A stretch of DNA of 64,000 nucleotides from Chiloscyllium plagiosum (Eukaryota), in assembly GCF_004010195.1 (NCBI RefSeq), contig NC_057732.1, positions 12,759,958-12,823,957 on the forward strand, given 5' to 3'. The notes beneath the pieces were generated by a model. It made no database searches and was not told where the DNA came from. It saw only the letters and a list, made by a program, of their open reading frames with translations. Of this stretch, positions 16,801 to 61,755 are shown in pieces. How positions within the stretch are numbered: position 1 is the first letter of the stretch; each line of letters opens with the position of its first letter. Made by a program: the position numbers and the translations under genes.

Positions 16801-19800
16801 ACCTTAAGATGGAGGAAAGGTCTTTGCAGCAGCTGAAGACATTTGGGCCTAGAACATTACCTTGTGAAACTCCAATTGGTGATGTCCTGGAGCAGAATTA
16901 ATGGACCTCTAACACCCATAACCATCTTTCTTTGCACTAAATACAAAGCCAAACACCAAAGATTAAAATTCCAACCCACACCTCAACAATTTCCCAGTGA
17001 CCCAATTTTGCTAGGACTTCTCAATACCATACTTAAAATGAGACCTTGATGTCAAGTTCAGTCACTCTCACCTCTGGAGGTCAGCTCTTTTGTCCATGTT
17101 TGGACTAAGGCTGTAATGAGATCAGGAGCTCAGAAGCCCTGACAGAATCCAAACAGCGCCTCAATAGGCAGGGCAATTCTGAGCAAGTACTGTTTGATAC
17201 CACTGTTAATTACCCCTTTCTATCATTTTGCTGATGATCAGCAATAAGATGATATTGAATTTATCTTGTACTGAAAAATGTGTTTTTTAAAAAATAATGT
17301 TCATCTGTGCCATTAGAATCTGGATGCTTCGATGTAATTCATGGAAATTATTAGGGTTCCAATTTACTCTTTGTATTGTTGGTTGCAAAATGCATTTTGC
17401 ATAGATGCTACTTTGATTAAGAAAATAGCTGAAATTGAAAGCGAATAAAATAAAAAAAAACTGTTCAGAGATACCATTATACATATTTGGAGAAGGCCCG
17501 ACTTGAATATGGGCCTCCTGGCTCACAGGCAGGGGCACTATCATTGTAACTCTCTTAGTAGCTATTTAATTAAACTCAGGAAATATTCAGCACCTCAGTT
17601 ATGTACAATTCCAGTGAAGTTTATGTTCACATCACAATTTTTTCCAAACTTCAGGAAGGAATTTGCCTCCCAATGTGTACCATATGTATAAGGTCAACAT
17701 TCCAAAACAAAGATGAATACAGAAAAGGAACTATGTATTGCAGAAAGTTTAATAAAAAAAAGGTGTTTTTCAGTCTCTATATAGCGGTCTTAAAATCATT
17801 AAAATATAACTCTAACCATAAACATAATAAATGCCAGTGATTTATTCCACAAAAACCTGAAGCCTTGGAGACCAAAGGTAGAACATGTTCAGAAATCCAA
17901 TAAAATTTGATGTTATTGTGAGCTTAACATAAAACTAAACTTTCAACCAATTGCTCGCTAGCTCCAAATATCTAAATGTCAATTAGTGTTAGCTCAGGGC
18001 ATAATATGACAACTTAATTGATCGTGATTGATGTTAGTCTGCTTTTTTATCTATTTTTGTTATGCTTGATCGATTAAAAATATGCAAAATGTGATTTTGA
18101 ATAGCTGCTACTTTGCTTTGTTTTATTCTTTTGCAATTTCAGTTATTTTCTAAATTAAATCGGTTTAGAAATGCTATTACATATAACTGGAGAAGGCAGG
18201 ACTAGAATCTGGGTCACCTGGCTCAGAGACAGGGACATTACCATTGTGCCACAAGATTTTTCATTGATTGATTAAATATTGGTATAACCAATTAGAGCCA
18301 ATAGAAACTTCCAAGAACCTGAGAAGCCAGTGTTATGAGCATACACCATCTACCAGTTTGCTGAGGACACCGTGGTAGGATGGATACCGAACAATGAGGA
18401 GTCAGAATACAGAAAGGAGTTAGAGGGCTTGGTGACCTGGTGCAATGAGAACAAACGCTCTCTCAATGTCATCAAAACTAAAACATCTGATCATTGACCT
18501 CAGAAAGAAAATAAAAGAGGCGAACACACCCCCATCTACATCAGAGCAGAGATGGAGAGGGTTGTGATGAAAGGAGTGACAATAACGGACAACCTGCCCT
18601 GGACATCTCATGTAGGTGCAACAATCAAGAAGGCACAACGATGCCCCTTTCCTCAGTTGGAGCAGGAAATTCGTCCTGTCCATAAAGACCCTCACCAACC
18701 TTTACAGTCTTACCACAGAAAGCACACTGTCCAGGTGCATAACAGCCTGGTAGGGCAACTACTCTGCCCAGGACCATAAGAAACTACAGAAGATTGTGTG
18801 CACAGCCCAGACCATCATGGAAGCTAGCCTCCCATCCAAGGAGATAAAGTGAGGACTGCAGATGCTGGAGATCAGAGGTGAAAAATGTGTTGCTGGAAAA
18901 GCGCAGCAGGTGAGGCAGCATCCAAGGAACAGGAGAATCGATGTTTCGGGCATAAGCTCCCATCCATGGACTCCACTCACACGTCATGTTGCTGTAGAAA
19001 AGCTGCCAACATCACAGACCCCTCCCACCCCGGTAATGATCTCTTACAACCTCTTCCATCAAGCAGAAAGTATAGAATCTTGAACAAATGCACCAGCAAG
19101 TTCAGGAACAGCTTTGTTCTTGTTATTAGACTGATGAATAGACTTTCCAACTTCAAATAATGTTATCTTGCCTCACATACATCCTATGCAACATAACCTG
19201 TATGCCTCACTCTATCCAAGTTTTTTTTTCTCACCCTATGATTTGTATGTCCTTGCTTACAATGATCTGCTTGTACTGCTCACAAAAGCTTTTCACTGTA
19301 CTTAGGTACACGTGACAATAAGTCAAATCAAACACACAAGGGAATCCTATGTTTGCTGAGTGATTGCTAATGGAAATCAAATATATAAAACACAGAGCAG
19401 ACACAGTGCACATGAGAATCGAGGAGAGGATGTGGGGTATTGAACACGCTAGTGATATCCGAGGAACCTGAGCATTTATTGCTTGTGAGACCAGAAGAGT
19501 GACCCACTTGGTGTGAGGACAACAGTCAGAACCCCAAAGTGCTCTGGACATTTTTAAACTTTTGATTTCAAAATGTGTCATACATAAGAAAAGGAGACGG
19601 TTACAGCCAAAAATGGTACAGCAGCTCGGTCAACTGCTCCTTCTCCTTTTCAGCTCAGATTCTTTGCTGCCCAGATCCTTCTGCCCTGGTAGATGTAAAT
19701 TAACTGCTTGCCTAGGGAGTGGCCAATAGAATTAAACACCTAAATTTTCAAAGATACTTCAAACAGACTATACTGTGGTCTCTTGCAATTACCAAAGTAA

Positions 19801-22800: not shown

Positions 22801-25800
22801 CTTTAAACCAAACCGTACAATTCTCTCTTTTAAAGCAACAAGATCTTCTTCCTCCTTTTTCCTCCTCTCGAAATGGGCTTCGATGAGAGTTTGCAGTTCC
22901 AACAGATCCTTTTCCATACGTTTTCGTTGAATGTCCTGTGGGCAAGAACATAACACTGATAGTGAAGGCCTTTGAATAACTATCATCTATGTAAGGGAAC
23001 TGTTCCTTTAGAAAGTGACCTAGCTGTACAATACAGGGCTTACTCTACAAAAGTATATGCTCAGCATGAAGTCTTGTCCAGCAGTAAAAAAGTGCTAGTT
23101 ACTGGGGCACAGTCATAACAGATGCACATTGCTCACAGCAAACGCACATGTCCAGAGGAGTGTAATTTTGCAATAATGATAAAAGTCATAGGAGAATCTT
23201 AAGTAAGGAAAGAGATGCTATATCATGGCTTATTTAAAAATATCTTTGACTTTATACCTGAATTAATCACCATGAAGAATTTATTTATGACCTATTATTT
23301 GAGTAAAGAAACAGTACAATCAGCTACCAGAATGCTTTATTGTTGATACCAATGTCCCTGTTTCAAGAAAAAAAGTAAATCTTTTAGTCCACTTTAAATT
23401 TCATTATATTGTTATAAACGAAAGGGAGAACATACGCTTTGACAGGAAATGAAAGATTTAACGGGAGAAAGTGAGGACTGCAGATGCTGGAGATCAGAGC
23501 TGAAAAATGTGTTGCTGGAAAAGCGCAGCAGGTCAGGCAGCTTATGCCCGAAACATTGATCCTCCAGCTCCTTGGATGCTGCCTGACCTGCTGCGCTTTT
23601 CCAGCAACACTTTTTTCAGCAATGAAAGATTTAATCCCAGGCTTGGTTAGTATATTTACAATGAACAAAGTATCAATTCCTAATTGTGTTTTGTTTTCTT
23701 TTATGCTTGGGGAAGTGAACAGTGTTAATGATAAAGCAAAATACTGCAGATGCTGGAAATTTGAAATAGAAATGGAAAGTACTGGAAATACTCAGCTGGC
23801 CTGGCAGCATCTGTGGAGAGAAAACCACACTTAATGGGCAGGATCTTACCACCTTAGGCTTTCTGTCAGTGTTTGCTAACTGACTCAGGAAAAGGGGAGG
23901 AAGAGAGTGGGTAAGGGAATACTACTGTATTTTTATTGCCCAGAAAGTAAGTCAGCCAACGATCTACAAGTTTGTGCTTAACTGTAGTTTTAAAAAGTTG
24001 AATATTGCATTATAGAGTTTAAATGTGGAAATAAATAAATAAATCAGTTTAATAACTAAGTAAGGCAAAAGGATAAAATTTGTTTAAATTTCAAATAAGG
24101 ACTGGAAGATAAAAAACCTCAGTGGAATTGTCCCAGTCCATGAATGATGTTGCAATGGTGAGGAAGTGGAGAATATCCAGTGAGGAGCTTCTAGACGTCA
24201 AAAGCACAATGGAAGGAAATAGCACTCGTTCAGGCTATGGAGAGTCTCAGGCTCAACCTCTTAATATTAGTGAACCTCATATGCACAGATTCCCTTCTTG
24301 GTATCCCTCCCTGTCAACACCACAGGCTGTGAAACTGCCCACATTGCCATCCAATGTGTCTTTGTAAAGTTCATTTCAGGTGGAGGAGGAAGTGTCTTGC
24401 AGAGTCAGTGTCTTGGCCTCAGAGCCCATGTAGATACCACTGGCATCTTGGGAGACAAAATAATGTTGCGAACAAGGGGTAGAAGCTCAAGCATGTTGAC
24501 AGTATATTCACAGTGAGAAAGTGAGGGCTGCAGATGCTGGAGATCAGAGCTGAAAATGTGTTGCTGGAAAAACGCAGCAGGTCAGGCAGCATCCAAGGAA
24601 CAGGAGAATCGACGTTCCGAGCATAAGACCTTCTTCTCCTGAAGAAGGGCTTATGCCCAAAACGTCGATTCTTCTGTTCCTTGGATGCTGCCTGACCTGC
24701 TGCGTTTTTCCAGCAACACATTTTCAGTATATTCACAGTGGTGATAATGGAACAGCAACACAGCATTAGACAAGAATAGGCAACACAGGGTGCGATGCAT
24801 AGGTAAATCAGGCACAATTTAGAAGATAGTGCAATGAAACTTGCCGGAGCTCACAGAGAGAAGCCCTCCATAAAACATGACAATAGAGAATAGTTGGCCG
24901 ATTTCTAATAAGATTCTACCTTCAGTTTTTGCAATGTTTCAAAAAATATAAAAGACTATTGGAAGAACTTCAGAGTTCCAACCTTACTAAACAGGACAAA
25001 AGAACTGAATACAGGGGGGAGGACGCCTATTTTTCAGGTCATTCAAACTAAAAATCACTAGAAAATCAAGAGCATTATACTTCAACCAGACAAACCTCAC
25101 ATCTAATTTACCTGATTTGTCTTGCTCTTGGTGGGCAAAACCACATAGGCACCACCCTCCACAAAAGTGAACCCAATTGAAGATAAAAATCACTAGAAAA
25201 TCAAGAGCATTATACTTCAACCAGACAAACCTCACATATCTAATTTACCTGATTTGTCTTGCTCTTGGTGGGCAAAACCACATAGGCACCACCCTCCACA
25301 AAAGTGAACCCAATTGAAGAAATATACTCACATCAAAGTCAACTTTTTCACCATCAGGCATTTTGGGAGCATGACTTGGTACAAATAACCTGAGGGAGAA
25401 GGAAAGGGAGAGAATGGGATTAAATATTATTTCTGAATTTCTGCATTACATACAAGGGAGGTACGAAGGATGTAATCAGTTATTCGGTCACTACAATTCA
25501 TACTTAAACTACCATAATGCACAATGACAACAACTTACATTTCTATTATGATTTTTAATGCTGCAAAACATGAAGAAGTAGGTTATAATCCCAGCTGATG
25601 GTAATGTTAGAGAGGTCAGAGCCTGGAATGAAATTTGGCTTGTTGGACCCCAAAATTTCTTTTTTGCAATTTGTTTACAGCAGTGGTCATTCACTGAACA
25701 TATTCATACAGTTGCAAATGCACTTTTAAAAAGATAGACCTTATTACACACAAAAGAAAAAAAAAGCTCTGTTACACTGTAAAAACTGTCAAATTAGAAA

Positions 25801-28800: not shown

Positions 28801-31800
28801 CTATATCAACCACTGTCCTTGACATCTGCTGGCTTTACAAAGCTAACCACTCTGGGTTCAGTGTTCAGGGATTGTCAATAAGATACTTTTACAGGTCCCC
28901 TTTGTCACAGAGCATGTTAGAGCTGGCACTTACTAGGAAATAACTAAACCTCTTACCAAGCAAAAGCCTAACCGCTCCCTCAAGAATGCGCCCAAGCGGA
29001 GAGAGCAGAGACGGTGTGGATACCATTGCTGAAACAACAGCAAGTTAGCAATTCCACTCTGTGGATGACACAAGTTGGACATAAGTGTGATCATCATACC
29101 AGCTACTTCCTTTTGAATTTCATCTGACTGCTGCGCAGTGACAGGCAGTGTGCAACATACAACACAGCAACTCACTGAGGTTCCTCATTGGTCAATGATA
29201 TTTATTGTCTGCAAGGACAGTGACATTATTTGTAAGGAGTGGAGGTATCAGTATATGGGATATCTTCCTTATCTGTGATGGAATCACCAGAGTTCCACAA
29301 AGTCTTGAAATAATATCACTGCCTTTCTCTAGCCACTAAGGATAGGTCGGTCCCAGAGAGGTCTGATCAGCATGGCTTCCATGAATACAGCCACAGATGG
29401 CAACCAAACAGTCAAAATAACCCTTGATGTTCACGTCCCATGAGGGGTACACACATATACCGGCAGTCTGAATGAGGGCTTGAACTTGCCCTAATGTGTG
29501 TGCTTGGGTCACATCTTTCATTCTATCCTGTTGTTACTGAGACTCCAGGCTGCAGTCTCCATCAATCACTGGGAAGAACCTGTTGCATTCCATTTCCCTG
29601 AGAATTGTAGCTATCACTCAATAATGACAGGTCACCCATTCATTTCAGACAGTCTCCGCACTGTAGTTAGACGATGTGGAAAAGTAGCTAGAGCAATATT
29701 CCTAGTATCCAACATGCATGGGGAGTTGGGTGTGGGCAGGGAGTGCCAGTCACATGAGGAATACTAGGGGTGACTGGACCACTCAATTAGTCACTGCCAC
29801 AAGGTGACCATGCGTTTTAAAAACAAGTGGTCTGGACTGCTCATAAGTACCAATTAGTGAGGTTTTGATCAAAAGGTGGGATAGAGAGGGGAAAGATTGA
29901 GAGTGAGGCAACCAAAATGGCTGGTTCCCAGAGCAAGAAAATCTTCTCCTGTTCCAATAAGTCAGTCACTGTACTTTGGCCAGGTCTTCATGTCGTTTAC
30001 AATGGTGATATCTCAGTTTGCATCTCAGCCTACTACATTGTAGGAGTACTACAATGTGCACTAGGGAGATGCTTTTCAGATTACTGGCTCCATGAGAGTT
30101 CCAGGTGCTTGGCTACTGGATATTTGGGACTTTATTGCATTCCTATTGTGAAATACGATATCACTGTGAAACCATTAGCAGTTTTTATTTATTTCTTCAC
30201 TTGTGGGAGTCACTGGCTGGTCTAGCTCTAGACACCACTGGTTCATGCCCAGGTCTAGATACTGCTGAGAAGGAAGGGAGCTACCTTCTTGAACCACTGC
30301 AGTCCATAATTGAGGCTACACAGTGTCCTTTACTTATGAGTAACATGGTGTTCGGTGTCACCTGAGGTGTAGGCAGTCTCCTCATGTCTGTCCATGAAGA
30401 GGTATCAAGGAAGCATAGCAATTTTACATTCCATGCATTCAGCTCTGGCAACCTGCCTGAGATAATGAGGGGGCAGCTGTGGTTCCAAGGACACATACTA
30501 GAGAGGACAGCTCTGGACAAATAAGCTGGGTAAGCCTTGGAAGACAAAAAGGTGCAGAAATGGTCTTTAGTATCATCTTCATCCGGAGTTGGTTTTCAGG
30601 CATGTTAGTAGGGCTGGCTGATGGGCTGCAGCAGTTCTCCACTCTGTGTCACTAACACCAAAGTCTTGTCAAGAGGAAAAAGCTTGTCATGTATTCCACA
30701 GTGATACTCGGAGGCTACCGACTGAGTCTTCAGGTGCTGGGTCCTCTACTTTTTGTCATTTACATAAATGATTTGGATGCGAGCATAAGAGGTACAGTTA
30801 GTAAGGTTGCAGATGACACCAAAATTGGAGGTGAAGTGGACAGCGAAGAGGGTTACCACAGATTACAACAGGATGTGGACCAGATGAGCTAATGGGCTGA
30901 GAAGTGGCAGATGGAGTTTAATTCAGATAAATGAGAGGTGCTGCATTTTGGGAAAGCAAATCTTAGCAGGACTTATACACTGAATGGTAAGGTCCTAGGG
31001 AGTGTTGCTGAACAATTTCGGGCAAAAGCCCGGGCTGAATTGCTGTGCTCTTCCAGCACCACTGATCCAGAATCTGGTTTCCAGCATCTGCAATCATTGT
31101 TTTTACCCCACTTTTGGAATATTGCCTATAATTCTGGTCTTCTTGCTATCAGAAACATGTTGTGAAACTTGAAAGGATTCAGAAAAGATTTACAAGGATG
31201 ATGCCAGTGTTGGAGGATTTGAGCTATAGGGAGAGGCTGAACAGGCTGGGGCTGTTTTCCCTGGAGCGTCGGAGGCTGAGGAGTGATCTTGTAGAGGTTT
31301 ACAAAATTATGAGGGGCATGGATAGGATGAACAGACAAAGTCTTTTCCCTGGGGTTGGGGAGTCCAGAACTAGATGGCATAGGTTTAGGGTGAGAGGAGG
31401 AAGATATAAAAGAGACCCAAAGGGCAACTTTTTCACACAGAGGGTGGTACATGTATGGAATGAGCTGCCAGAGGAAGTGGAGGCTGGTACAATTGCAACA
31501 TTTAAGAGGCATTTGGATGGGTATATGAATAGGAAAGGTTTGAAGGGATATGGACCAGGTGCTGGCGGGTAGGACTAGATTGGGTTGGGATATCTGGTCG
31601 GCATGGATGGGTTGGACCGAAGGGTCTGTTTCCATGCTGCTCATCTCTATGATTCTATGTTGCTCTTGCACGGACTGGAAGTGATGCAGCATGGGTCGCT
31701 CGATGATGGTGAACATTCCATCGTTGTTGGAGTTCACGATTTGGAGTCCTCAAGACAAGGTCAAGCTCATCAGTGTTCAGACTCCTCTCCTAGAGTGCAC

Positions 31801-34800
31801 ATTGCCTCAGGGAACTCTCCGTCAGATGTCCATACATCTGCTACTTTAAGTACTGTTTTCCATTATGTGACTTTGAAGGCTCTAACTGTCTCTGTGCTCC
31901 TTCCTCCAAACGGAGCTGTGCACAGATAGTCTCCTCCTGCCCTCTAGTGCCGTGCCCATTACCACATGCCACTGAGTCTAATTGAGTGCCATATCCCTCT
32001 GAAATGCTAGTATCAGTGTTGGCGGAGTTTGAGCTAGTCAAACATCATGGTGCTTCCTCTGGCATCTCCTCTTTCTCCTGATGCTGGAGGTGGTTGCATA
32101 GTCAAGGGATTTATGAGAGAATGACAACAGATAAACAAGACAAGCCTTGGATCTTTGGACAGCACATGCAGCTTAAGGTCATTATCTCCAACCACATCAG
32201 CAGAACCCCCCACTGCAACTAATCCTTCCTGCTCCACATTACGTCAACTTCCCAATATAGTTTGTCCATTTTCCTCATGCATTGCCATCAATCCCAATAA
32301 TTTTAAAAAAGTGCTAAGATACCTCCAACACCACCTCTAGCACCTACTTTAGCCAATTCACTGGTCTCGGAGGGCACCATGACATGAATCACTCATGGGT
32401 GTATTGCCTACCTTTGGTTTTGACCATCACCTTAGCGTCATGAGCCTTCTTTTCCAGCAAGTGTACAATACCTGAAGGCATTTAAAAGGTCATTCTCTCC
32501 TGTATCCAGTGACTTTCATCAAAGTTGTAGTGGGTTACATTCATATGCCAATTTGTGAATGCTTGCGCATACAAGACCATCTATTCGATCATGGTAGGAG
32601 GATGGTGTGTGCCAAATGTAACACTGCTGTCTGAAACATTAGGGCAATCAGTGAAACAAAAAGTGTTCATGCCAAGCAACTCACTTTGGCAGAGGACGTC
32701 GTAGGACTGTTCACAGGCACGAGGGTATGTCTCTGCTATGCTCACCATGTCTGTCATGGTCTGTGATACTGGAAGGCTCCCTTCTTCCTTCAGGATACAA
32801 AGGATTCCTCCAGCCTTCAACTTCCAAGGCCAGGAGCACCAGACTGTGGGCACAGTATTGGAGCTTCTAAAACACTACTGGGACATTATGGCACAACAAA
32901 GATACCATGGGGATAGACAATGTTTCGAGCTAGATATAACTTTTGCTTTCTGAAGCTGGACAGCAAGGGGAGCACAAGCTGATGCTGTCTTATGTGTGAA
33001 TACACAAATAGCGTCTGGTATGTCCCTGAGTGAAAATAATCAGGGTGCTATAATTAGATTAGATTACAATCTAATTCTACAGTGTGGAAACAGGCCATTC
33101 GGCCCAACAGGTTCATACCCACTCTGAAGAGTAACCCACTCAGACCCATTTCCCTCTGACTAATGCACCTAACACTCTGGGCAATTTAACACGGCTAATT
33201 CACTTAACCTACACATCTTTGGACTGTGAGAGGAAAACCACGTAGATACGGGAAGATTGTCTGTATGGAGTTTGCACAGTCACCTGAGGCGGGAATCAAA
33301 CCCAGGTCCCTGGCGCTGTGAGGCAGCAGTGCTAACCACTGAGCCACCATGCCACTCCAAGTGTACTTTAGAGTGCCCAGAATGTGAGGGGTTCAGTGCA
33401 TGTAGCAGGGGTAAAGATTAAATTCCAAACAGGAGCTGAGGCAAAATATTGATGTAGGGATCACGACCTACGAAAAAGGTAGCCAGCTGCATTACTGGCA
33501 TTGAGAGACTTTACCAATATGGAGTGAGGCTATGTGGCCATTCCTTACATTAGGCAGCACCAAAACCCATACTTTCATATTGAAGACCCATGAAGGTTAG
33601 TCTCTTGCAGCATTCATAACCAGTTGGCCAGAAATTCCAGTTTCTACTCACTTAACTACTTTCTTGCCTCTCTTCCCTCAAGCCTTAATTACTGTTGCTG
33701 CTCCCTCAGATCGCACTTTATAATTAAGTGCAAAGTGGGAATCAATGGGGCCTGCCCCACAGCTGAGCCACTTCCTAATTCTACCCCATAATAAAAATTC
33801 ATCCAACAGAGATAGAACATTTCCCCATTTGAGCTACACACCTTGGCTGCTAAAATCTGGCATAAAATGAGAACAGAATAATAAAACTTACTGTCTAATT
33901 TCTAATCAGACACCAGCTCAGGCATACAGTGCGCACTCAAAATTCATTAGATATCACATGGAGAAGAACTGGTTGCTGCCATGCCAATCTGATAGCATTC
34001 AGATGAACTTATGAAAGGAAAATCTTGAATCAAGAGATCAATATAATAGATGGCTGGGCATTTGCAATTTGCTGCCCGAATCTTATTTCCTATTTGACAG
34101 ATTTCACAAGACATTCCAATTCCATTCACCTAGAGTTCTACAAGTACTCAGACTGATGACTTACTTTGGCTTTGGCTTTGTCTCTTCTGTAACAGAGAAA
34201 AACATAACTAGGGTGTTGTTAGTGAATACACATCGCTGGACTCTTACATTCAAAAACTAGCATCAAATTATTCACAATTATGAATGTATACATTTATCCC
34301 AAAATCTGCAAACCTTAAAATTTAGAGAGATTAAATGAAAATTAAGAGTGATACACATTATGGTCATGGAGTGGTTTATTTCCGGACTAGTAATTCAAAA
34401 GTCCAGTCTTATAAACAGGAAAAGTTCCAATCCAGCCTGAGAATTTAAAAGGCATTTTATTTTTAAAATTCTGGAAATAAAATAAACAAAAATAAAAAGA
34501 GGTACCAGTCTTAGATAAAAACTAAAAGAACTGCAAATCAGAAACAACAAATAAAAGCTGCTGGAAAAGCTCAGTAGGTCTGGCAGCATCTGTGCAGAGA
34601 AATCAGGGTTAATGTTTCGGGTCTGGGTTCTGAAGGTCACCAGACCTGAAATGTTAAATTTGATTTCTCTTCACAGATGCTGCCGGACCTGCTGAGCTTT
34701 TCCCGCAGCTTCTGTTTTGGTAACAGTCTTAGATTGTTGATAAAGATAAACTCAGCAAATTTATTGGCGCTGCTTAGGCCCTATTCAATATTGGATTTAG

Positions 34801-40800: not shown

Positions 40801-43800
40801 GACGAGGTGGCGCCAATGCAGTCATCAATGTAGCAGAGGAAAAGGTGGGGAGTGGTGCCAATGTAACTACGGAATTGTTCTACATAGCCAAAGAGACAAA
40901 CATCTGCAGTCCTTGATTTTGCCTACATCTTGCAAAATGTCCAGATTACAGAGGAGGAAGTGCTGGATGTCTTGAAACGGGTAAAGGTGGATAAATCCCC
41001 AGGACCTGATCAGGTGTACCCGAGAACTCTGTGGGAAGCTAGACAAGTGATTGCTGGGCCTCTTGCTGAGATATTTGTATCATCGATAGTCACAGGTGAG
41101 GCACCGGAAGACTGGAGGCTGGCAAACGTGGTGCCACTGTTGAAGAAGGGTGGTAAGGACAAGCCAGGGAATATAGACCGGTGAGCTTGACGTCGGTGGT
41201 GGGCAAGTTGTTGGTGGGAATCCTGAGGGACAGGATGTACATGTATTTGGTAAGGCAAGGACTGGTTAGGGATAGGGATAGCTTTGTGTGTGGGAAATCG
41301 TGTCTCACAAACTTGATTGAGTTTTTTGAAGTAGTAACAAAGAGGATTGATGAGGGCAGAGTGGTATATGGACTTCAGTAAGGCGTTCGACAAGGTTCCC
41401 CATGGGAGACTGATTAGCAAGGTTAGACCTCACGCAATACAACCATTTGGATCCAGAACTGGCTCAAAAGGTAGAAGACAGAGGGTGGTGGTGGAGGGTT
41501 GTTTTTCAGACTGGAGGTCTGTGACCAGTGGAGTGCCACAAGGATCGATGCTGAGTCCTCTACTTTTCTTATTTACATAAATGATTTGGATGTGAGCATA
41601 GGAGGTAACGTTAGTGAGTTTACAGATGACAACAAAACTAGGTGTAGTGGGCAGCGAAGAGGGTTACCTCAGATTACAACAGGATCTTGACCAGGTGGAC
41701 CAATGGGCTGAGAAGTGGCAGATGGAGTTCATATAGAACATAGAACATAGAAGAATACAGCGCAGTACAGGCCCTTGGGCCCTCGATGTTGCGCCGATCC
41801 AAGCCCACCTAAACTACACTAACCCACTATCCTCCATATACCTATCCAATGCCCTCTTAAATGCCCATAAAGAGGGAGAGTCCACCACTGTTACTGGCAG
41901 GGCATTCCATGAACTAACGACTCGCTGAGTGAAGAACCTACCCCTAGAGGGGTGACCTTATAGAGGTTTACAAAATTATGAGGGGCATGGATTGGGTAAA
42001 TAGACAAAGTTTTTTCCCTGGGGTCAGGGAGTCCAGAACTAGAGGGCATAGGTTTAGGTTTAGGGCGAGAGGGGAAAGAGGTGGAGGCTGGTACAATTGC
42101 AACATTTAAGAGGCATTTGGATGGGTATATGAATAGGAAAGTTTGGAGGGCTATGGGCCGGGTGCTGGCAGGTGGGACTAGATTGGGTTGCGATATCTGG
42201 TCGGCATGGATGGGTTGGACCGAAGGGTCTGTTTCCATGCTGTACATTTCTATGACTCTATGACCTGGTTAGTTTCCAGCAATTGTGCTATTCATTGGCA
42301 CTCCCTCCTTCCTGTCTTGAGCTTGGGAAGGTAGGGACAAACAAAGAGGTGACAGGGGTTTATTCCCAAAGCCATTTAAATGCAGACTACAACTCCCAAA
42401 AATTGGAGATGCATCTTGACTGCAACTTTCCACAGTAATCCTAATGCCACACAAGTATCTGATGATAATAATCTTTTCTAATTAATCATCTCTCTGACTT
42501 TCAACAGCATGACTGCAGTGGAATCCCCCATCATCAACATCCTGTGGATTACTGTTGATCAGAAACTGAACTGGACCAGTCAGATTATACTAAGGCTACA
42601 ACAACAGATGAGAGATCGGAGTTGAGCAACTCTCCTCCTGATTCCTGAAAATCTGTGCAGCATCTATAAGGCACTGATCAGGAGAATGCTGGAAACAAGT
42701 TACTTGAAATGATCCAGGACACCTGTGACATTCAGACACTGACAAGAATGTGCATCATTAAGGCCTTTGTGAAAGCATCTTCCAAACTTCCACCCTCTAC
42801 CAGCTAGAAGAACATGGGCAGCAGATCAATGGCAGTGCACCATCGGCCAGCTGCCCTCCTATTTCCAGGCCCTCCTAATTAAATTGATGCTCCCTCACCA
42901 AATCTAGGTCAAAATGCTGGAACTCTCTCCAGAACAGCTCTGTGGATGGAGCTAAGCTACACGGGAGCCAAAGGGAGCCAGCTCACAGTCACCTTCGAGG
43001 ACATCGAGGGAAGGACCACAAATGTTAATGATGCTCATATCCCAAGAAAGCAGTCCAACAGTGGTGGATAGATGGGAAAAAAAAAGTCCTACACCCAGAA
43101 TTTCTGACACAGTTTCTAGCACAAAAGAGAAGTGACCTGATAGAAGTTTATAAAATAATGAGGGGTATAAATGGATTTGATGCTAGTTGTCTGTTCCCTA
43201 AGGAGTGGAGTTTCAAGACTAGGGGGGCACATTTTTAAGATGAGTGGAGAGAGATTTAAAAAAAAAGACATAAGGAGGCAAACCTTTTTACACAGAGGGT
43301 GGTTTGCCTGTGGAATGAACTTCCTGAGGAAGTGGCGGATGCGGGTACAATTACAAGATTGACGACATTTGGAAAGGTTTGGAAGGATATGGGCCAGGAG
43401 CAGGCAGGTGGAAATAGTTTAGTTTGAGATTATGTTCAGCATGGACTGGTTGGACCGAAGGCTCTGTTTCCCTGCTGAATGACTGTAAAAAAGGAGAGAA
43501 ATAAATCTTCCAAACACTGAACAAGAATGTTTCCAAGCTCCATGCTCATCACTTGGAGGATAAAGTGTCTGCAAAAAGACTGGTGATAAAAGCATTGAGC
43601 CATGAGCTGGCAGAAGCACAAAACTCAGTATAATCAGCAAGTTAAGTCTCCTACTTACCATCTGGCTTGCCCAGCACCAAGCTCTGAGGTATCTGTATAG
43701 TCAGGTTGAAATGCAGGCAATTGAATGCTACCAGGAAGGCAGCGACCAACAGGAATTATGCATTGCATGTTGTTACACACTAGCTGGATAATCAGAGCGT

Positions 43801-46800
43801 CAAACCTCCTTGCTGTTAACATACTTAGCAGTCAGTGTGTAAAGCTTCCTATCCTTGCAAAGTTCCCAGCATTCTTACTTTGCTACTTCAATAGGTAATA
43901 AAGATTGATTAATTCCTCTTCGCATAGAGGGCATTCATGACATCCCAGATGCAGCAGCATAGGATAAATCATGTTGGATGCAGCAATGCTGCTAATGCCA
44001 CTTGTTTCAGCAGAGCAGAAATGTGGAGCAGAATATCAGCACTATCACATTTACAGCCTTCACAAGTGCTCTTCAGGTCCTGTGTGGAACCTCAACGACC
44101 AATGACACCAACCACTGTGAGACTGAAGCTAGTTATGTCTACCTCATGACAGGTCCAGGTCGACAACACATGTTTGAAAATCCATATGGTGTATGGCCTT
44201 CTGCACCTACCTTCTCTTTATCCCTCTTCACATAAAACCACCAATTTCTGAAATTATCCTTATTGATCCCTCTTCAGCCTCCAGCTCCAACAGCAGATCT
44301 ATCATAATATTAACTATGTTGAAAGTAAAAGTAGAGAAAACTTTCTCAAAAAAGGTGATGACTCAGATTATTTTTATAAAAAAAAAGCACTCGATACTTG
44401 ACTTCTAGCCAACATTCATCCAAACAAAAAACTCCATAAGTCATTACAATGACTAACCAAGATACTCAACCAAAACAGAGGGAAGAATCCCTTTAAATAC
44501 CATCTCTGCAGGCTATTCCTCAGCATGATTTGCTGAGTGAAATCAGACACAGGTACACAGCAATATAACAAAAGCAGCCCGAAACAATGAAGCTTGCCAA
44601 TTTCAATGCTTCTTTCTGGTAGCTTTGTAGATGATTGAAATCTTTTTCAAATTGGCAAGAAACACACTTCCTTTGTAATATGGGGTTGTACAAATCACCT
44701 AGCAAAACAAAAATTCAATTTCTCTTTAGATACATACAAATTGCTTAACTTGAATGACGGGACCAATTATGAAAGGAAAATGTATTTATGAAGTAAAGAG
44801 CATTTCTCAGTCTAATTAATTATGACCAAGTCATTCAAAGTTGTCTACAAGATCAGATGTGGATATTAAGGTTGCTTTTGATTGGCAATAGAGACTAGCT
44901 GTAGCAAGGATGGCAGAGTCAGATGTACAGCACGGAAACAGACCCTTCGGTCCAACCTGTTCATGCCGACCAGATATCCCAACCCAATCTAGCCCCACCT
45001 GCCAGCACCCGGCCTATATCCCTCCAAACCCTTCCTATTCATATACCCATCCAGATGCCTTTCAAATGTTGGAGTTGTACCAGCCTCCACCACTTCCTCT
45101 GGCAGCTCATTCCACACACGTACCACCCTCTGCATGAAAAAGTTGCCCCTTAGGTCTCTTTTATATCTTTCTCCCCTCACCCTAAACCTATGCCCTCTAG
45201 TTCTGGACTCCCCGACGCCAGGGAAAAGACTGCCTATTTACCCTATCCATGCCCCTCAATTTTGTAAATCTCTATAAGATCACCCCTCAGCTTCCGATGC
45301 TCCATGGAAAACAGCCCCAGCCTGTTCAGCCTCTCCCTGTAGCTCAAATCCTCCAACCCTGGCAACATCCTTGTAAATCTTTTTGGAACCCTTTCAAGTT
45401 TCACAACATCTTTCCGATAGGAAGGAGACCAGAATTGCATGCACTATCCCAACAGTGGCTGAACCAATGTCCTGTACAGCCACAACATGATCTCCCAATT
45501 CCTGTACTCAATACTCTGACTAATAAAGAAAAGCATACCAAACACCTTCTTCACTATCCTATCTACCTGTGACTCCACTTTCAAGCTATGAACCTGTACT
45601 CCAAAGTCTTTGTTCAGCAACACTCTCTAGGACCTTACCATTAAGTGTACAAGTCCTGCTAAGATTTGCTTTCCAAAAATGCAGTACCTCACATTTATCT
45701 AAATTAAACTCCATCTGTCATTTCTCAGCGCATTGGCCCATCTGATCAAGATTCTGTTGTAATCTGAAGTAAGCTTCTTTGCTGTCTGCTAACCTCCAAT
45801 TTTGGGGTTATATCAAACTTACTAACTACACCTCTTATGCTCACATCAAAATCATTTATATAAAATGAAGTGTACCCAGCACCAATCCTTGTGGCACTCC
45901 ACTGGTCACAGGCCTCCAGTCTGAAAAACAACCCTCCACCACTACCCTCTGCCTTCTACCTTTGAGCCAGTATCCAAATGGTGAGTTCTCCCTGTATTCT
46001 GTGAGATCTAACCTTGCTCACCATTCCCCCATGGGGAACCTTGCCGAATGCCTTACTGAAGTCCATATAGATCAATGCTACTGTTCTGCCCTCAATCCTT
46101 TTGTTACTTCTTCAAAAAACTCAAGTCAAGTTTGTGAGACATGATTTCCCATGCATAAAGCCAGGTTGACTATCCCTAATCAGTCCTTGCTTTTTCAAAT
46201 ACATGTACATCCTGTCCCTCAGGATTCCCTCCAACAACTTGCCCACCACCGACATCAGGCTCACTAGTCTATAGTCAAGGTTAGAGTGATGCTAGAAAAG
46301 CACAGCAAGAAAAGAGGGCTGATTCCTGATGAAGGACTTTAGCCCAAAACATTAAGTTTCCTGCTCCTCGGAAGCTGCCTGACCTGTTGTGCTTTTCCAG
46401 CACCACTCTAATCTTGATTCTGATCTCCAGCATCTGCAGTCCTCACTTTCATCCCCTTGGTAGTCAAGAATCTACCTCTGCCTTAAAAATACTTGAAAAA
46501 TCTGCATCCACTACTTTTCAGGAAGGGAATTCCAATGGCTTACAAATTCCCGACATAACAAAGAACAAAAGAAAATGACAGCACACGAACAGGCCCTTCA
46601 GCCATCCAAGCCTGCGCCTGTCACCTATTTTCCAAGGAACTGTATCCCTCTGCTCCCTGCCCATTCATGTACCTGTATAGATATATTTTAAATGATATTA
46701 TCATGCCGGCCTCTGCTCCTTCCACTAGCATGTTCTAGGCACCAACCACCCTCTGCATAAAGGACTTTACACGCATATCTCCCTTAAATCTTTTCCCCTC

Positions 46801-53131: not shown

Positions 53132-53290
53132 CTTGGATTGAGGAGTAGCACTACTCCAATACCTCACTCCACCAACCTCACCTTAACCTGCAAATTTGCG
53201 CGCACCCTTGTGCGCGGCCACATTTAGCGCGCACCCGTGCGACCCGTGACCGCGCCTTGCTATCCCATTGGCTGAGGGACGATATTTTAT
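53132..53290 (-). promoter_or_regulatory. Candidate troponin T non-coding exon 1 and CpG-rich proximal promoter
   Basis: Strong donor AAG|gtaaga with exon end at 53132 (second AAG|gtgagg about 50 nt upstream). The most CpG-dense unique patch seen in the window (about 53195-53260, GCGCGCACCC twice). CCAAT on the minus strand at 53267-53271. Lies 5.4 kb upstream of the ATG exon. Confidence 0.55.
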
Positions 53291-54124: not shown

Positions 54125-55740
54125 TTAAGAAACAGGAACAGGAGTGGCCTGTTTGGCCTTTTGAGCCTGCACCACCATTCAATAGGGTCATGGTTGATCA
54201 GACATTTCTGATATCCACTTCCCTGCATTTTCCACTTAATCCTTTATTTCCCAGAATGTACCTATCTCAGCCTTGAATGTACACAAGGACTCTGCCTCTG
54301 CAGCTCTCTTTGGCAAGGAGTTCACAATCTTCTGAGAGAAGAAATTCATGCTCATCTCAGTCGCTTTATTCTGAGACTATGCTGTCTGGTCTTAGATTCA
54401 CCCATGAGGGGAAACATCCTCTCAGCATTTACCCTGTCCAGTTTCTTAGGGATCCTGTGTGTTTCAATGCGATCACCTCTCATTCTTCTAAACTCCAGTG
54501 AGGAATGTCCTCACATATTTAACCTTTGTTTATAAGACAATCCCTCCATGCTCGGCACCATCCCTAGTGAACCTTCTCTGAACTGTCTCCAATAAAATAA
54601 CGTATTTCCTACAGGACCAAAACTACTCACAGTACTCCAGATGTGGTTTCACCCGCACCTTGTACATTTGCAGCAAGACTTCCCTACTCTTATACTCCAA
54701 CCCTCTCAAAATCAGGATTAATATTCCATTAGCCTTCCTTATGACCTGCTATACCTTTATTTCATGCACAAGTGCACCCAAGTCCCTATGTGTTGCAGCT
54801 TTCTGCAGTTTTTCTCATTTAAATAATACTGTTATTTTGTCCTCCCTTCTAAATGAACAAGTTCATATTTTCCCACATTGTACTCCTTGTGCCAACTTTT
54901 GTGCACTTACTTAACCTATCAATATCTCCTTGTAAGTTGTTTGTATCCCTCCCACAACCTGCCTTCCACCTATTTTTGTGTCTTCTGCAAATTTGTCTGC
55001 AGTATACAGTATTGGCTTCCTTCCACCAAGTCATGAATATATATCATAAACAGTTGCGGTCCCAGCACTGATCCCTGTGTAACCCCACTGGTCACAGGTC
55101 ACCAACCTGAAAAAGAACCCCTTATCCCCACTCACTGTTTCCCGCCCATTAACCAATTCTCCGCTCATGCCAGTTTACTACCCACAACACTATGTTATCC
55201 TTATGGCAACTTTTTGTGAGGCACCTTGTCAACCACCTTCTGGAAGTCCAAATGCAACACATCTACTTGTTCCTCTCTATCCACTCTGGTTGAGACATCC
55301 TCAAAAAACTCTAATAAATTAGCCAAACATGACTTCCCTTTCATGAAGCCATGCTGACTCAGCTTGATGAGATTATGAATTTCCAAATGTTCTGATATTA
55401 CTTCCTTATTAATTTATTCCAATACCTTTCCAACAATAGTTGTTAGTCTAATCAGCCTGCAATTACTTGCTTTTTGCCTCCCTGCCTTTTTGAATAGAAA
55501 TATCACAATGATAGTTTTCCAAAACACTGGCACTTCTCACTATGCCTGGTGAAGAAGCAGCACACCGAATGCTTGTGATTTCAAATAATCTTGTTGGACT
55601 ATAACCTGGTGTTGTGTGACTTCTGACTTCTCAAGAATCCAAGGATTTTGTAAAATTACAACCACTGCATCCACTTCTTCTGTAGCTATCTCTTTTCAGA
55701 TGGAAGCCATCAGTGTAGGGAGACCTATCTACATTTAGTC
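54125..55740 (-). mobile_element. CR1-clade LINE fragment
   Basis: SQHGFMKGKSCLANLLEFFEDV..LDFQKVVDKVPH; small Penelope-type piece at about 55540-55625. Confidence 0.88.
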
Positions 55741-58419: not shown

Positions 58420-58685
58420 TGGGCAACATGGTGGCTCAGTGGTTAGCACTGCTACCTCACAGTGTCAGGGACCCAGGTTCAATTCTGGCCTTGGGTGGCG
58501 TTCTGTGTGGAGTTTGTACATTCTCCCTGTGTCTGTGTGGATTTTCTCCCACACTCCAAAGATATGCAGGAGAGGAGATTTGGCCATGGGTTAAAACCCC
58601 ATATGGGGTGGAATGCTCTTTAGAGGGATGGTATAGATTTGATGGACCGAAATTGCTTCTATCTGCACTGTATGGATTCTATGCT
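58420..58685 (+). mobile_element. HE1-type SINE
   Basis: gggcaacatggtggctcagtggttagcactgctacctcacagtgtcagggacccaggttcaattc head; ggattctatg tail. Confidence 0.85.
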
Positions 58686-59164
58686 TTTTCAATTTTTTTA
58701 AGAGAGAGAAATAGGCTGGAGTTCATAGATATATACCTGGCATTGAGGTAGAAGCTAAAACATATGTTGATGGAGAAATTTGCATTGCAAAATTTGAACC
58801 TTTTGACAGTGAGTGGTTCAGATCTGGAATGCAGCACCTGGGATGTGGGGCAAGTTAATTTAATCATAGCTTTCAAATGGGAATTAAGTAAGAAAGTGAA
58901 AATAACAAATTGGAATAGATACCAGGAAGTGCTGGGCAGAGGGGCTCCCTGATTTACCTTTGCCAGGACAGTTCAATGCCCTCCTTCTCTGCTGTAGGCA
59001 TTCCTTTGAGGAAGAGAGTTCCACATTCCTACTACCCCTCTGGTTCCTAAATACTCTATCCTATGGCTTACTATGATTGTGTTCCTTCATTCTTGATTTC
59101 CGCAATTTAATGTTCTAATATGCTGTATTATTGGATAAAAATTGAAAGAACTGCATTTTCTGTA

Positions 59165-59420
59165 AATCAGAAACAAAAACAGAAATTGCTGGAAAAGCTC
59201 AGCAGGTCTGGAAACATCTGTGGACAGAATTCACAGTTAATACTTTGGATTGAGTGCCCTTCCTCAGAACTGATAGTAACTGGGAAAATGTCGGTTTATA
59301 TGCAGAAGATAGGGTGGGGGAAGGGGGTGAAGTGTAAATAGATCCCAAAGAGAGAGAAGAACAGTTGGACAGGCAAAGGAGTGGACAACAATCCAGCTAG
59401 GAAGGTGAATAGCTATTAAT
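59165..59420 (-). mobile_element. Penelope-like 3' fragment with degenerate hammerhead
   Basis: Same 3' tail as 34535-34722; minus strand gttCTGAGGAagggcactcaatccAAAG. Confidence 0.6.
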
Positions 59421-59982
59421 GACAATTGTGCTATACAATTGGATTGGTTTGTTGAGACAGGTGACGTGGATCCTATTTTAATATAATGACAACGTTTACA
59501 AATCTCATCACCAGATGTTTACCCGTTCCTTTCGATGTTTATGTACTGGAATAGAATGCATTGCCACATTGAATCATACAACACAGAAAGAAGCCATTCA
59601 GCCCATGATGATTGTGTTAGATGTACATCATAAACTGCTGGTGCTATTTGCAGTTTGATGACATCAATCTGAAAAGGTAATAATTTTGTGGTTAGGGCAA
59701 AGACTGGGATTATACATTTATCAGCATAAACGTGCAAGTAGTGTACTCAAGTCGTGGAATGAAATGACTAAGCAGATATGCCACCAATGACTACCTTACA
59801 AATACCAGTAAATAGATTTGAACATGATTTCCAGAAATTGAGTATGAGAGTAGGTTTAATAGGCTGTGATGTGTGTTTTGCTTCCTATAGGGTGTTGTAC
59901 CTGATGCAGGAATATTTATTTTATCCCAAGTAACATAAGAACTTATTACAGGTAATTTGGTATTGAAGGATCTAACAGACTT

Positions 59983-61755
59983 AAGAACATAAGCACTTGG
60001 AGCAGGAGTAGGCCACACGGCCCTTCGAGCCTGCTTCACCGTTCAGTAAGATCATGGCTGATCTTTTCTTGGACTCAGATCCACTCACCCGCACTCTCAA
60101 CATATACCTTAATTTCTTTCCTGTTCAAAGAAAACCTACCTTAGCTTTAAAAACGTTTACTGAAGTAGCATCAACTACTTCACTGGGCAAAGAACTCCAT
60201 AGCTTTACAACCCTCTGGATGAAGAAGTTCCTTCTCAATTCAGTCCTAAATCAGCTCCCCCTAATTTTAAGGCTATGCCCTCTTATCCTAGCTTCACCTG
60301 CCAGTGGAATCATCCTTTCTACTTCTTTCTTGTCTATTCCCTTTATAATTTTATATGTTTCAATAAGATTCCCCCTCATTCTTCTAAATTCCAATGAATA
60401 TAATCGCAGTTTACTCAGTATCTCTTCATAAGCCAACCCCCTCAACTCCGGAACCAACTTAGTGAACCTCCTGTGCACCCCCTCCAGTGCCAGTACGTCC
60501 TTTCTCAAGTAAGGAGACCAAAACTGCATGCAGTTCTCCAGGTGTGGCCTCACCAGCACCCTGTACAGCTGCAACATAACCTCCCTGCTTTTAAACTTAA
60601 TCCCTTTAGCATGAAGAACAAAATTCCATTTGACAAAGGGTCAGTTAGACTCGAAACGTCAGCTCTTTTCTCTCCTTACAGTTGCTGCCAGACCTGCTGA
60701 AATTTTCCAGCATTTTCTCTTTTGGTTACAAAATTCCATTTGCCTTCCTAATTACTTGTTGTACCTGCAGACCAACCTTCTGCGATTCATGAACAAGGAC
60801 ACACAGGTCCATTTGCATAGCAGGACGCTATAATTTTTTTTTTACCATTCAAGTAATAATCTTTTTTACTGTTACTCCTACCAAAATGGATGACTTCACA
60901 TTTATTAACATTGTATTCCATCTGCCAGACCTTTGCCCACTCACTCAATGTATCTATGTTCCTCTGCAAAGTTTCACAGTCCTATGCACACTTTGCTTTG
61001 CCACTCATCTTAGTGTCATCTGCAAACTTTAACACACTACATGTGGTCGCCAACTCCAAATCATCTATATAAATTGTAAATATATGTGGTCCCAACACTG
61101 ACCCCTGAGGCACACCACGAGCCACCGATTAACAATCATTAAACACCCATTTATCCCAACACCTTGTGTTGCTTTTTGTTAGTTCAGTGATAGTTAGTGA
61201 CAGTAGGACTCACAGGTCCATTTGCATAGCAGGACGCTATAATTTTTTTTTTACCATTCAAGTAATAATCTTTTTTACTGTTACTCCTACCAAAATGGAT
61301 GACTTCACATTTATTAATATTGTATTCCATTTGCCAGACCTTTGCCCACTCACTCAAAGTATCTATGTTCCTCTGCAAAGTTTCACAGTCCTCTGCACAC
61401 TTTGCTCTGCCCCTCATCTTCATGTCATCTGCAAACTTTGACACACTACACATGGTCCCCAACTCCAAATCATCTGTATAAATTGTTAATAATTGCAGTC
61501 CCAACACTGATCCCCTGAGACACACCACTAGTCACTGATTGCCAGCCAGAATAGCACTCATTTATCTCCACTCTTTGCTTCCTGTAAGTCAACTCTATCC
61601 ACGTTAATACTTTACCCCTAACGCCATGCATCCTTACCTTGTGCAGCAGCCTCTTATGCGGTACCTTGACAAAGGCCGTTTGGAAATCTAGGTACACCAC
61701 ATCCACTGGGTCCCCATTGTGCACCTTGCTCATAATGTTTTCATAAAAATCCAAA
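59983..61755 (-). mobile_element. CR1-clade LINE fragment with internal duplication and Penelope-derived insert
   Basis: [40 protein letters not shown]; insert 60633-60727 with 15-bp TSD acaaaattccatttg (60618-60632, 60728-60742). Confidence 0.9.

Follow-up and report, generated by a model that had tools for sequence, protein, structure and literature searches.

We observed that the nine short insertions considered here are the 3' ends of Neptune-like Penelope elements of at least three families, and that their 5' ends cluster at the hammerhead motif, the main boundary being the 5' edge of stem I and not the cut site. The window is the whole stretch analysed, 64,000 nucleotides from Chiloscyllium plagiosum (NC_057732.1). 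The stubs comprise the last 90-135 bases of ordinary Penelope-type elements, often joined head to head. We consider it probable, though not strongly so, that the reverse transcriptase (RT) begins copying at an internal site and continues until the RNA template ends at its 5' side, the stubs being short insertion products of Neptune-like Penelope elements.

All nine insertions of the original prediction were present at the sites given, with lengths of 86-209 bp (the one listed as 34535 begins at 34517), and at least three sequence families were seen among them where at least two had been claimed. Arm positions are counted from the C of CUGA (0; the cut site is +27/+28) and were read by eye from alignments, with a doubt of 1-5 nt. 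About half had been described as fold-backs, and five of the nine are head-to-head two-armed pairs. Two pairs belong to subfamily A1: 23462..23620 has a reverse arm (tail) from about +49 and a forward arm (no tail) from +11, 98% alike (TSD 23448-23461 / 23621-23634, 14 bp), and 24516..24724 is a near-perfect palindrome with arms from +2 (tail) and -2 (no tail; TSD 24500-24515 / 24725-24740, 16 bp). The family B pair at 34517..34723 has a reverse arm (tail) from +14 and a forward arm from -3, 80% alike, with an exact 11 bp TSD (34506-34516 / 34724-34734). At 36136..36305 the reverse arm starts from +27, the cut site, and the forward arm (tail) from +20, with a degraded border repeat of about 12 bp visible by eye. 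The arms of this pair are only 77% alike; an origin from two templates was considered and not established, and the insertion looks old. The A2 pair at 46278..46452 (reverse arm from about +58, 12 nt of filler, forward arm with tail from -4) lies between two different older repeats. Since its two flanks match different other repeats, its 8 bp border repeat is probably due to chance.

The A1 stub at 18839..18956 (minus strand, tail) is single-armed and ends at +11, in the stem II loop (TSD 18829-18838 / 18957-18966, 10 bp). Another single-arm stub, 60633..60727 (plus strand, family B-like, no tail), has its 5' end at +1 to +3 (TSD 60618-60632 / 60728-60742, 15 bp). The single-arm stub at 55540..55625 (plus strand) represents a third family, and its hammerhead-like core is decayed; its 5' end lies at about -6 to -4, its border repeat is 8 bp (55532-55539 / 55626-55633), it has no second copy in the window, and it was assigned to Penelope from the hammerhead motif alone. 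The A3 stub at 31017..31107 adds a short inverted ribozyme piece (+8 to +23) in front of a forward arm from +53 with tail. It has no TSD, and the LINE into which it inserted has lost about 150 bp, the flanks matching 45725-45610 and 45458-45336 of a sister LINE copy.

Clean TSDs of 10-16 bp had been claimed for four insertions; exact repeats of this length were found, but at five. The longest exact direct repeats at the borders were 10 bp (18839), 14 bp (23462), 16 bp (24516), 11 bp (34517) and 15 bp (60633), with weaker ones at 55540 and 46278 (8 bp each) and 36136 (5 bp) and none at 31017. For comparison, among 400 position pairs drawn at random, repeats of 10 bp were reached in 0.25% and of 8 bp in 2.3%. 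Between the TSDs there was only Penelope 3' sequence and 0-12 nt of filler. The stub 3' ends fall at two fixed positions, with or without a tail of about 35-40 nt, and in all eight two-ended units of the window (long copy included) the tail was on one arm only.

The original set had been chosen for shortness. Left out within its range were a 5'-truncated autonomous-element copy of 1.28 kb (39642..40924, minus strand), a family B copy with tail (59143..59420, minus strand; C of CUGA at 59267) and an old single-arm stub (23734..23836, minus strand; family B-like, tail). The last is short and fits the claim, its 5' end being at about +26 to +32, near the cut site, with a border repeat of 6 bp only. 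The 59143 copy probably extends about 150 nt beyond the ribozyme, as judged from pyrimidine content only; its extension did not align significantly to other upstream regions (211 and 138 of 500 shuffles), and scoring it as reaching -150 was a choice working against clustering. Three further copies lie outside the range: an A3 copy with an intact core whose upstream part, 79 nt or longer, meets the window edge (1..170, plus strand), an old family B-like head-to-head pair with arms from about +17 and +55 (11605..11752), and a young pair of a fourth family (8971..9413; arms 97% alike; TSD 8955-8970 / 9414-9429, 16 bp). The 5' ends of this young pair, at -157 and -127, are far from its own hammerhead, and the family is a counter-example to the hammerhead-edge rule.

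As had been predicted, truncation and inversion junctions lay near the hammerhead. Twelve of the 15 arms of the nine insertions started between -5 and +27 (the others at +49, +53 and +58), and each insertion had at least one arm within the motif. When the 23 primed arms of the window were taken (without the inverted piece at 31017, which has no 3' start), 13 ended within the 37 nt from -6 to +30, and no end fell between -7 and -78. The density of ends was 2.8 per 100 nt at risk in -6..+30 versus 0.6 in +31..+65, and zero across the 369 nt at risk in -7..-80. Six of the 23, tailed and tail-less both, fell in -5..+2. A clustering scan of these arms gave p of 0.003-0.01 with fitted lognormal lengths and 0.005 with exponential lengths of mean 100 nt. 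Anchoring by position and by length were not separated in the window by a rank test (p 0.28 vs 0.32); the means of arms ending in -10..+65 (+21 for nine with tail, +18 for eight without) lean towards position, in a comparison biased by the cut-off.

Ordinary smooth 5' truncation could give such a picture if the pile-up came from the selection of short copies together with an alignment edge where subfamilies diverge. The omission of longer copies from the original set, the scan p of 0.06 with exponential lengths of mean 60 nt, and the divergence of subfamilies just upstream of -4 all agree with this. We consider it improbable, since the window ends, with none in -7..-78, are set by TSDs and inversion junctions without alignment, and two further observations, from contigs and from reads, speak against it.

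The first comes from contigs placed on window positions 39632-39931, in DNA sets X1 and X18 (the latter with a second species label). Ends at -4 and -3 accounted for 1366 and 433 of 8561 partly placed contigs in X1 (21%) and for 1252 and 399 of 7737 in X18 (21%), the -4 count being inflated by another subfamily with a different upstream sequence (consensus starting GAGG), with ends from -4 to about -10 pooled. The next site on the upstream side had 299 (X1) and 263 (X18), and every unlisted site was lower. Even with all other partial contigs ending in the 65 positions downstream, the -4 site would stand at 14 times the mean. The letters beyond the boundary were random-like, with an agreement of 0.31 at -3 and 0.33-0.34 at -4 (simulated pure flanks gave 0.30-0.31), and the loose ends were long (median 133-255 nt). 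In contrast, a site of subfamily divergence at 39760 gave an agreement of 0.56-0.61 and a median of 19-28 nt. An agreement of 0.33 is compatible with run-ons making up about 10% if from one subfamily, 30% if from five and 50% if from 10-20. The loose-end agreement of RNA reads was 0.43. The peak lies at the 5' edge of stem I and not at the cut site, and the predicted non-smooth distribution holds both in the window and in contigs of the two species labels.

The second observation is from X21, where read counts fell 20-fold and then, between -69 and -137 over the ORF end, stayed flat (75 and 71). This set, of which 2% was read, is a single-cell poly(A) library and ill suited to mapping 5' ends; no pile-up of molecule starts was listed in it. 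Summed DNA depth of the tail was only 3.3-3.9 times that of the ORF end; ORF-bearing copies are therefore common.

We also evaluated the hammerhead as a barrier to copying. A folded motif, or a protein bound to it, could act as a point of stalling or template switching, giving ends at or in the motif regardless of where the RNA starts, and the original prediction had offered the fold as an RT stall. Of the 13 arms in the window cluster, seven have their ends between +11 and +29, away from the stem I edge, one of them at the base of stem II (+20). Among opposite-strand joints (nine rows listed, 44 contigs), one arm was at -2 to -9 in 43 of 44 contigs and the partner arm between +30 and +35 (stem I, base on the 3' side) in 41 of 44. 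The rows listed were 18 of 825 for loose ends and 15 of 39 for joints, with some left uncounted, and contig counts favour unique junctions. The long copy has a six-base direct repeat either side of the core (at -3 and +32), a 40 nt core duplication was seen in one contig of each DNA run, and X21 reads dropped by 43% from +45 to +4, partly as an edge effect. These findings agree with a stall, which could explain the +30 to +35 class. It accounts poorly for -4, however, since the main peak lies at the 5' edge, the far side, which the enzyme would reach only after unwinding the whole motif. Moreover, the isolated motif folded no better than shuffles in eight of nine copies, and the 8971 family has a hammerhead, yet both of its arms were copied through. 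A stall as the general cause is thus unlikely in our view.

It had also been proposed that the ribozyme defines the unit. One form of this is that self-cleavage sets it, as in retrozymes, with cut RNAs starting at +28 as templates. Two window arms do end at the cut site (the 36136 reverse arm and, approximately, the 23734 stub), and the +30 to +35 joint arms sit 2-7 nt inside it, so that self-cleavage may explain this minor class. The main boundary (-3/-4) is, however, about 30 nt upstream of the cleavage site. Eleven of the 13 arms in the cluster extend 5' beyond the cut site, and their templates were therefore uncut. The cut site was absent from the top loose-end sites among the rows listed, tandem units were absent, and the anole study had no reads at the cut site (PMC11167929). 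Self-cleavage as the delimiting event is very improbable.

Another claim was that the stubs form a SINE- or retrozyme-like family. This was not supported. In a tree of 17 arms (40-65 nt aligned, modest support), no clade of mini-elements only was found, and stubs joined longer copies in three of four groups: 31017 grouped with the 1-170 copy at a support of 0.99, 46278 with the 1.28 kb copy at 0.85 and 34517 with the 59143 copy at 0.76. The five window pairs have five different junctions, and the commonest joint class among the rows listed had eight contigs, each at about single-copy depth. None of the nine insertions has an intact catalytic core, which is cut off or altered in CUGANGA or GAAA. 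No tandem repeat of these elements was found in the window, where TRF finds one array (25049-25320), unrelated. The stubs are likely a by-product of copying to the RNA start and not a separate self-spreading family.

These observations also bear on whether the unit from -4 to the tail is a self-propagating, SINE-like solo terminal repeat, carrying an internal promoter and both start sites and re-copied in trans. We think this quite unlikely, although the unit is highly abundant with a fixed start, and A1 has no long copy in the window. In a rotifer, having the terminal repeats in cis is enough for an element to be mobilised in trans, and non-autonomous Chlamys elements are known, according to the parts of these papers available to us (PMC3846280, PMC8557442). 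Against it, along with the grouping of stubs with longer copies and the differing junctions, stand the absence of a unique head or body and the requirement of the anole enzyme for RNA past the tail end (PMC11167929), which a solo unit would lack unless its flanks substitute.

Returning to run-off at the RNA 5' end, each stub was likely produced afresh at insertion. The RT would start from either of two internal sites, lying about 90 and 130 nt to the 3' side of the hammerhead core, on uncut RNA likely starting 3-10 nt upstream of the core, and -4 would correspond to the RNA 5' end. This RNA would be started by a terminal-repeat promoter, by analogy with D. virilis Penelope, where the promoter was mapped in the terminal repeat (PMC2377424). 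In the pairs, extension would take place from both target ends, and the resulting copies would be joined to each other over 0-2 nt of overlap. Ends inside the motif may be incomplete or trimmed run-offs, and long copies may come from priming at the downstream repeat or from a template jump. In vitro, the anole Poseidon element PAc (Frangieh et al. 2024, PMC11167929) behaves in a similar manner: cleavage and extension occur on both target strands, there are two internal start sites for copying, which match the tail, uncut RNA is the main template, a shorter RNA 5' end gives a shorter product, product length being set from that end, and ribozyme mutants leave insertion unchanged. PAc belongs to another clade, however, its ribozyme overlaps the ORF start, and its genomic 5' ends were not reported in the available main text. 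When the shark tail was considered as an ORF start, it had no significant match to the N-termini of 71 longer relatives, the best E being 0.19 in a set without a clear shark N-terminus, and the anole layout was therefore not carried over to the shark element.

Two other candidates were set aside. Ribozyme-stem microhomology was not supported as a general cause of head-to-head joins, the window junctions sharing only 0-2 bases. A splice acceptor at stem I is described for D. virilis in the part of PMC4209133 available; the AG at -4/-3 occurs in family B and is absent in the A subfamilies, and the acceptor was rejected for A since a common upstream exon would raise loose-end agreement.

A bolder form, which we put forward only tentatively, is that the stubs are 'strong-stop'-like products, primed in the 5' repeat, copied to the RNA start and inserted alone hundreds of thousands of times; at its boldest, the solo unit would be re-transcribed as a ribozyme-headed SINE. 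If the strong-stop reading is true, the transcription start and the two priming sites are preserved in the genome, and a full-length copy could arise only by a jump from the 5' end to the 3' repeat of the RNA. Penelope-like elements are the closest retroelement relatives of telomerase. A sharp boundary upstream of the cut site in very many copies indicates that uncut RNA is the usual template in vivo, and predicts the position of the RNA start. This bears on the rebuilding of Penelope terminal repeats and inverted ends and on the role of the hammerhead (PMC2377424, PMC11167929, PMC7761336).

The elements themselves are of a known kind, with no host function implied. The long copy holds an RT end (YIDD), a Cys linker, a GIY-YIG domain and the 3' UTR, with an intact minimal hammerhead (C of CUGA at 39732) and then a short 3' end; a tail-only inverted piece lies at its 5' end, frameshifts break its ORF, and its TSD is 14 bp (39628-39641 / 40925-40938). 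Its RT part is 81% identical to P0099, which bears RVT_1, and its endonuclease (EN) part matches the C-termini of relatives of 740-890 aa at about 50% identity. The GIY-YIG match (E 5e-4) scored 20.8 bits, below the Pfam cut-off of 22.6. By homology, the copy has the canonical EN+ Penelope-like order, RT then C-terminal GIY-YIG endonuclease. The minimal hammerhead in the terminal repeat, and the inverted 5'-truncated copy with a tail at one end, are further canonical EN+ features present here. No full-length copy occurs within the window. A C-x4-C-xx-C motif, found in the long copy and in the C-terminal half of 67 of the 71 longer relatives, points to the Neptune clade; motifs of this type are a feature that Neptune shares with Nematis in the available part of PMC8557442.

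Core and stem II are directly visible in the copies at 80, 39732 and 9022. Rfam hammerhead models had no match in the window at E up to 5; eight weak Rfam matches were hairpin look-alikes. Metazoan Penelope-like minimal hammerheads likewise lack helix III and lie in the terminal repeat (Cervera and de la Pena 2014, PMC4209133). The portion available of that paper describes single motifs that are dispersed in their thousands and 'probably related to truncated PLEs', and opposite-strand pairs 100-700 bp apart, as in the shark; breakpoint mapping was not found in it. What differs in the shark copies is a stem II of 4-5 bp and a copy boundary that goes with the 5' edge of stem I.

Published work already covers truncated copies and their inverted arms and tails, as well as minimal hammerheads at dispersed sites. 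In the available portions of Craig et al. 2021 (PMC8557442) and Arkhipova et al. 2013 (PMC3846280), canonical EN+ insertions are heavily 5'-truncated, with solo pLTRs, and as in the shark they begin with an inverted copy that is itself 5'-truncated and have a tail of 30-40 bp at one end only, 8-10 bp TSDs round the whole unit and palindromes at inverted junctions. The shark units differ in being mostly the last 90-135 nt only, with 5' ends piling up at one site. Such a one-site boundary was not found in those portions, nor a sharp 5' boundary at the hammerhead edge in the literature searched. Animal non-LTR retrozymes, reported in one cartilaginous fish, share the type I hammerhead, an origin from Penelope terminal repeats and the lack of coding capacity, but form tandem arrays with a complete ribozyme per unit and circular RNAs (bioRxiv 10.64898/2026.07.22.740005; PMC7761336). 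The shark stubs, in contrast, are single or inverted units with mostly broken cores, and their ends are not at the cut site.

A 20-base tail pattern was seen at 17 loci in metagenome contigs; none matched beyond about 25 bases, and these were taken as chance. An initiator-like heptamer with its A at -4 is present in three copies; it is a weak signal, since the 100 nt preceding the long copy on its upstream side contain four other matches and stem I, too, starts at -4.

We observed that all nine short Penelope 3'-end insertions ("stubs") named in the original prediction were present in the window. Five of them, rather than four, carried clean target-site duplications (TSDs) of 10, 14, 16, 11 and 15 bp; among the other four, two had an 8 bp border repeat, one had a degraded repeat and one had none. 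Random position pairs (n=400) gave a 10 bp border repeat once and an 8 bp repeat nine times. The content between the TSDs was Penelope sequence and short filler, and nothing else. In line with the fold-backs first described for about half of them, 5/9 were arranged as head-to-head pairs. A profile search and self-BLAST of the window yielded six further insertions, three of them inside the range first described: a long copy at 39642-40924 (minus strand, 1.28 kb, 14 bp TSD), a copy at 59143 with a probable upstream run of 150 nt, and a short copy at 23734.

The long copy codes for a reverse transcriptase (RT) end joined by a Cys-rich linker to a GIY-YIG domain. After this come a pyrimidine-rich stretch, an intact minimal hammerhead (as described in PMC4209133) and the 3' end common to the stubs. 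The relatives of its protein were RT-plus-GIY-YIG proteins of 700-1000 aa, the best named ones being from bamboo shark. By its sequence, the long copy is an endonuclease-bearing Penelope-like element and, judging by the linker, putatively Neptune-like. Its endonuclease-end frame extends to a stop at 39729-39731 that is the UGA of the ribozyme CUGA, which may be a frameshift accident. Counting along the element from the C of CUGA as 0 (minus being upstream), the 3' ends of all arms (the copied pieces of a stub or pair) had just two positions, near +90 and near +130. The extra tail was confined to one arm in 8/8 two-ended units of the window. This layout of inverted arm and one-sided tail is published (PMC8557442 and PMC3846280), and the two 3' ends here match the pair of sites inside the anole element's RNA at which copying starts (PMC11167929).

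The cluster of breakpoints first described at the hammerhead was borne out. Among the 5' ends of 23 primed arms, 13 lay at -6 to +30, four at +31 to +65 and one downstream of that; the stretch from -7 to -78 had none, and five arms ran beyond it (two of these treated as censored). Per 100 nt at risk, the five zones from downstream to upstream had 0.23, 0.59, 2.77 (-6 to +30), 0 and 0.64 ends, with a zone-model likelihood-ratio p of 1.5e-4 that is optimistic, since the zone was picked from the same data. A sliding 37 nt scan gave p of 0.003 and 0.01 when arm lengths were fitted as lognormal, and of 0.06, 0.005 and 0.0006 for exponential lengths with means of 60, 100 and 150 nt. For the six arms that ended at -5 to +2, the scan gave p of 0.03-0.07 with the lognormal and 0.21 with the exponential of mean 60. 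The fourth family, at 8971, showed no clustering of 5' ends at the hammerhead. Its young pair (8971-9413, 16 bp TSD) has arm ends 127 and 157 nt upstream of the hammerhead and lacks an initiator-like heptamer at -4; it forms a natural control family.

Beyond the window, 67,675 contigs of one DNA set (X1) and 65,057 of a second with another species label (X18) aligned to 39632-39931 at 80% likeness, with 8561 and 7737 fitting partly. The biggest upstream-side loose-end sites listed were -4 (1366 in X1; 1252 in X18) and -3 (433; 399), together 21% of the partly fitting contigs in each set; the next listed was -28 (299; 263). Some of the count at -4 reflects an alignment edge, as a different subfamily departs from the reference from -5 on. 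Two features of the loose letters indicate that most of the signal is real, namely that they are long and that they are near-random: their agreement was 0.31 at -3 and 0.33-0.34 at -4, against 0.30-0.31 for simulated random flanks, and 0.56-0.61 at the divergence site -28. Simulation placed the ceiling for run-ons at about 10% with one subfamily and about half with 10-20 equal subfamilies; the peak stood 14 times higher than a worst-case flat baseline of 90-99 contigs per site. From the loose-letter agreement and this baseline comparison, we conclude that many copies terminate in the interval from -3 to roughly -10.

In the nine opposite-strand rows among the best 15 of 39 joint rows, one arm ended at -2 to -9 in 43/44 contigs and the other at +30 to +35 in 41/44, contig assembly favouring asymmetric pairs of this type. 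Summed DNA depth of the tail was 3.3-3.9 times that of the ORF end, which accords with 2/8 family A insertions of the window running upstream. Raw reads of a poly(A) single-cell RNA library (2162 aligned) lay on both strands of the element, with 1652 at +45, 948 at +4 and 75-71 from -69 to -137; they probably derive from intronic copies. At 39718 (+14), 87 of these RNA reads end with 98% agreement beyond, from one well-expressed stub-bearing locus. The window is vertebrate non-coding DNA with many LINE fragments and a troponin-like exon at 22660-22986 (minus strand; PF00992, E 4e-7), and the stubs close to this exon are probably situated in introns of its gene.

The observation stood, and its interpretation in part. 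A separate SINE- or retrozyme-like family was not supported, since the stubs group with longer copies, differ in their junctions, and have neither an intact core nor a tandem array. In a tree of 17 arms on a short alignment, stubs in 3/4 groups fell with longer copies from the same subfamily rather than in mini-element clades. The five window pairs had five different junctions, and the commonest listed joint class comprised 8 contigs of about 12-fold depth each, as for single loci. An intact catalytic core was present in 0/9 insertions, and the window held no tandem array of the stub unit. A retrozyme is by definition a tandem array whose units each contain a complete ribozyme (bioRxiv 10.64898/2026.07.22.740005 and PMC7761336); the stubs are therefore rejected as members. 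A solo terminal repeat propagating itself is unlikely. A 40 nt ribozyme unit (39697-39736) was tandemly duplicated in one contig per DNA run, a possible seed for retrozyme-like dimers.

The ribozyme had been proposed to define the unit. Arms spanning -4 to +27 need an uncut RNA template (the cut site in family A lying after +27 by hammerhead numbering), so something other than cleavage determines the main end. A polymerase stalled by the ribozyme fold, also proposed, would reach the stems first at +31 and +19 on going 3' to 5' along the RNA, which suits the ends at +30 to +35 and +20; it suits the main peak at -4 less well, where the polymerase would already have opened all the stems. On the simplest reading, so hard an edge on the upstream side would be the point where the RNA itself begins. 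For the anole element, copying is known to start inside the RNA, and shortening of the RNA 5' end shortens the product (PMC11167929); in D. virilis, the terminal repeat contains the promoter, with a start at 371 and an intron end at 491, at ribozyme helix I (PMC2377424 and PMC4209133). Given such an RNA start, products primed in the 5' repeat would share an upper length limit of about 95 or 135 nt, and the stubs correspond to products of this type. In three copies, from two families, the A at -4 lies within a heptamer that resembles the initiator consensus; this adds little, because heptamers of this type occur often in that region and stem I also begins at -4. For the partner arms at +30 to +35, cut RNA may have served as template; a stall or snap-back at stem I may also account for them, as may slippage between two six-base repeats, one at -3 and one at +32.

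Earlier publications already describe scattered single minimal hammerheads that derive from truncated Penelope elements, pairs on opposite strands, inverted arms and tails. In the openly accessible literature covered, the text of the papers cited here and the listed entries of others, we found neither a mapping of 5' ends against the ribozyme nor a description of such shark stubs. As elements, the stubs are of a known kind; their 5' boundary is sharper than we found described there and offers a testable handle on Penelope replication.

Some insertions had features of their own. The arms of the 36136-36305 pair were just 77% alike, with characters from different subfamilies; this is possibly one insertion from two RNA templates, or a difference due to age (its border repeat is degraded). 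Those of the 34517 pair were 80% alike. At 31017-31107, an inverted ribozyme fragment lacking a 3' end of its own resembled L1 twin priming, and about 150 bp of the target is missing. A 12 nt filler between arms (46310-46321) looks like ribozyme stem II and was possibly templated while the arms joined. The window also holds a tandem duplication at 25049-25320 (unit 137 bp, 98% alike) unrelated to Penelope ends, an 844-base N run at 62643-63486, and a 300 bp direct duplication at 60796-61504 (spacing 409 bp, 94% alike) within a LINE-like stretch.
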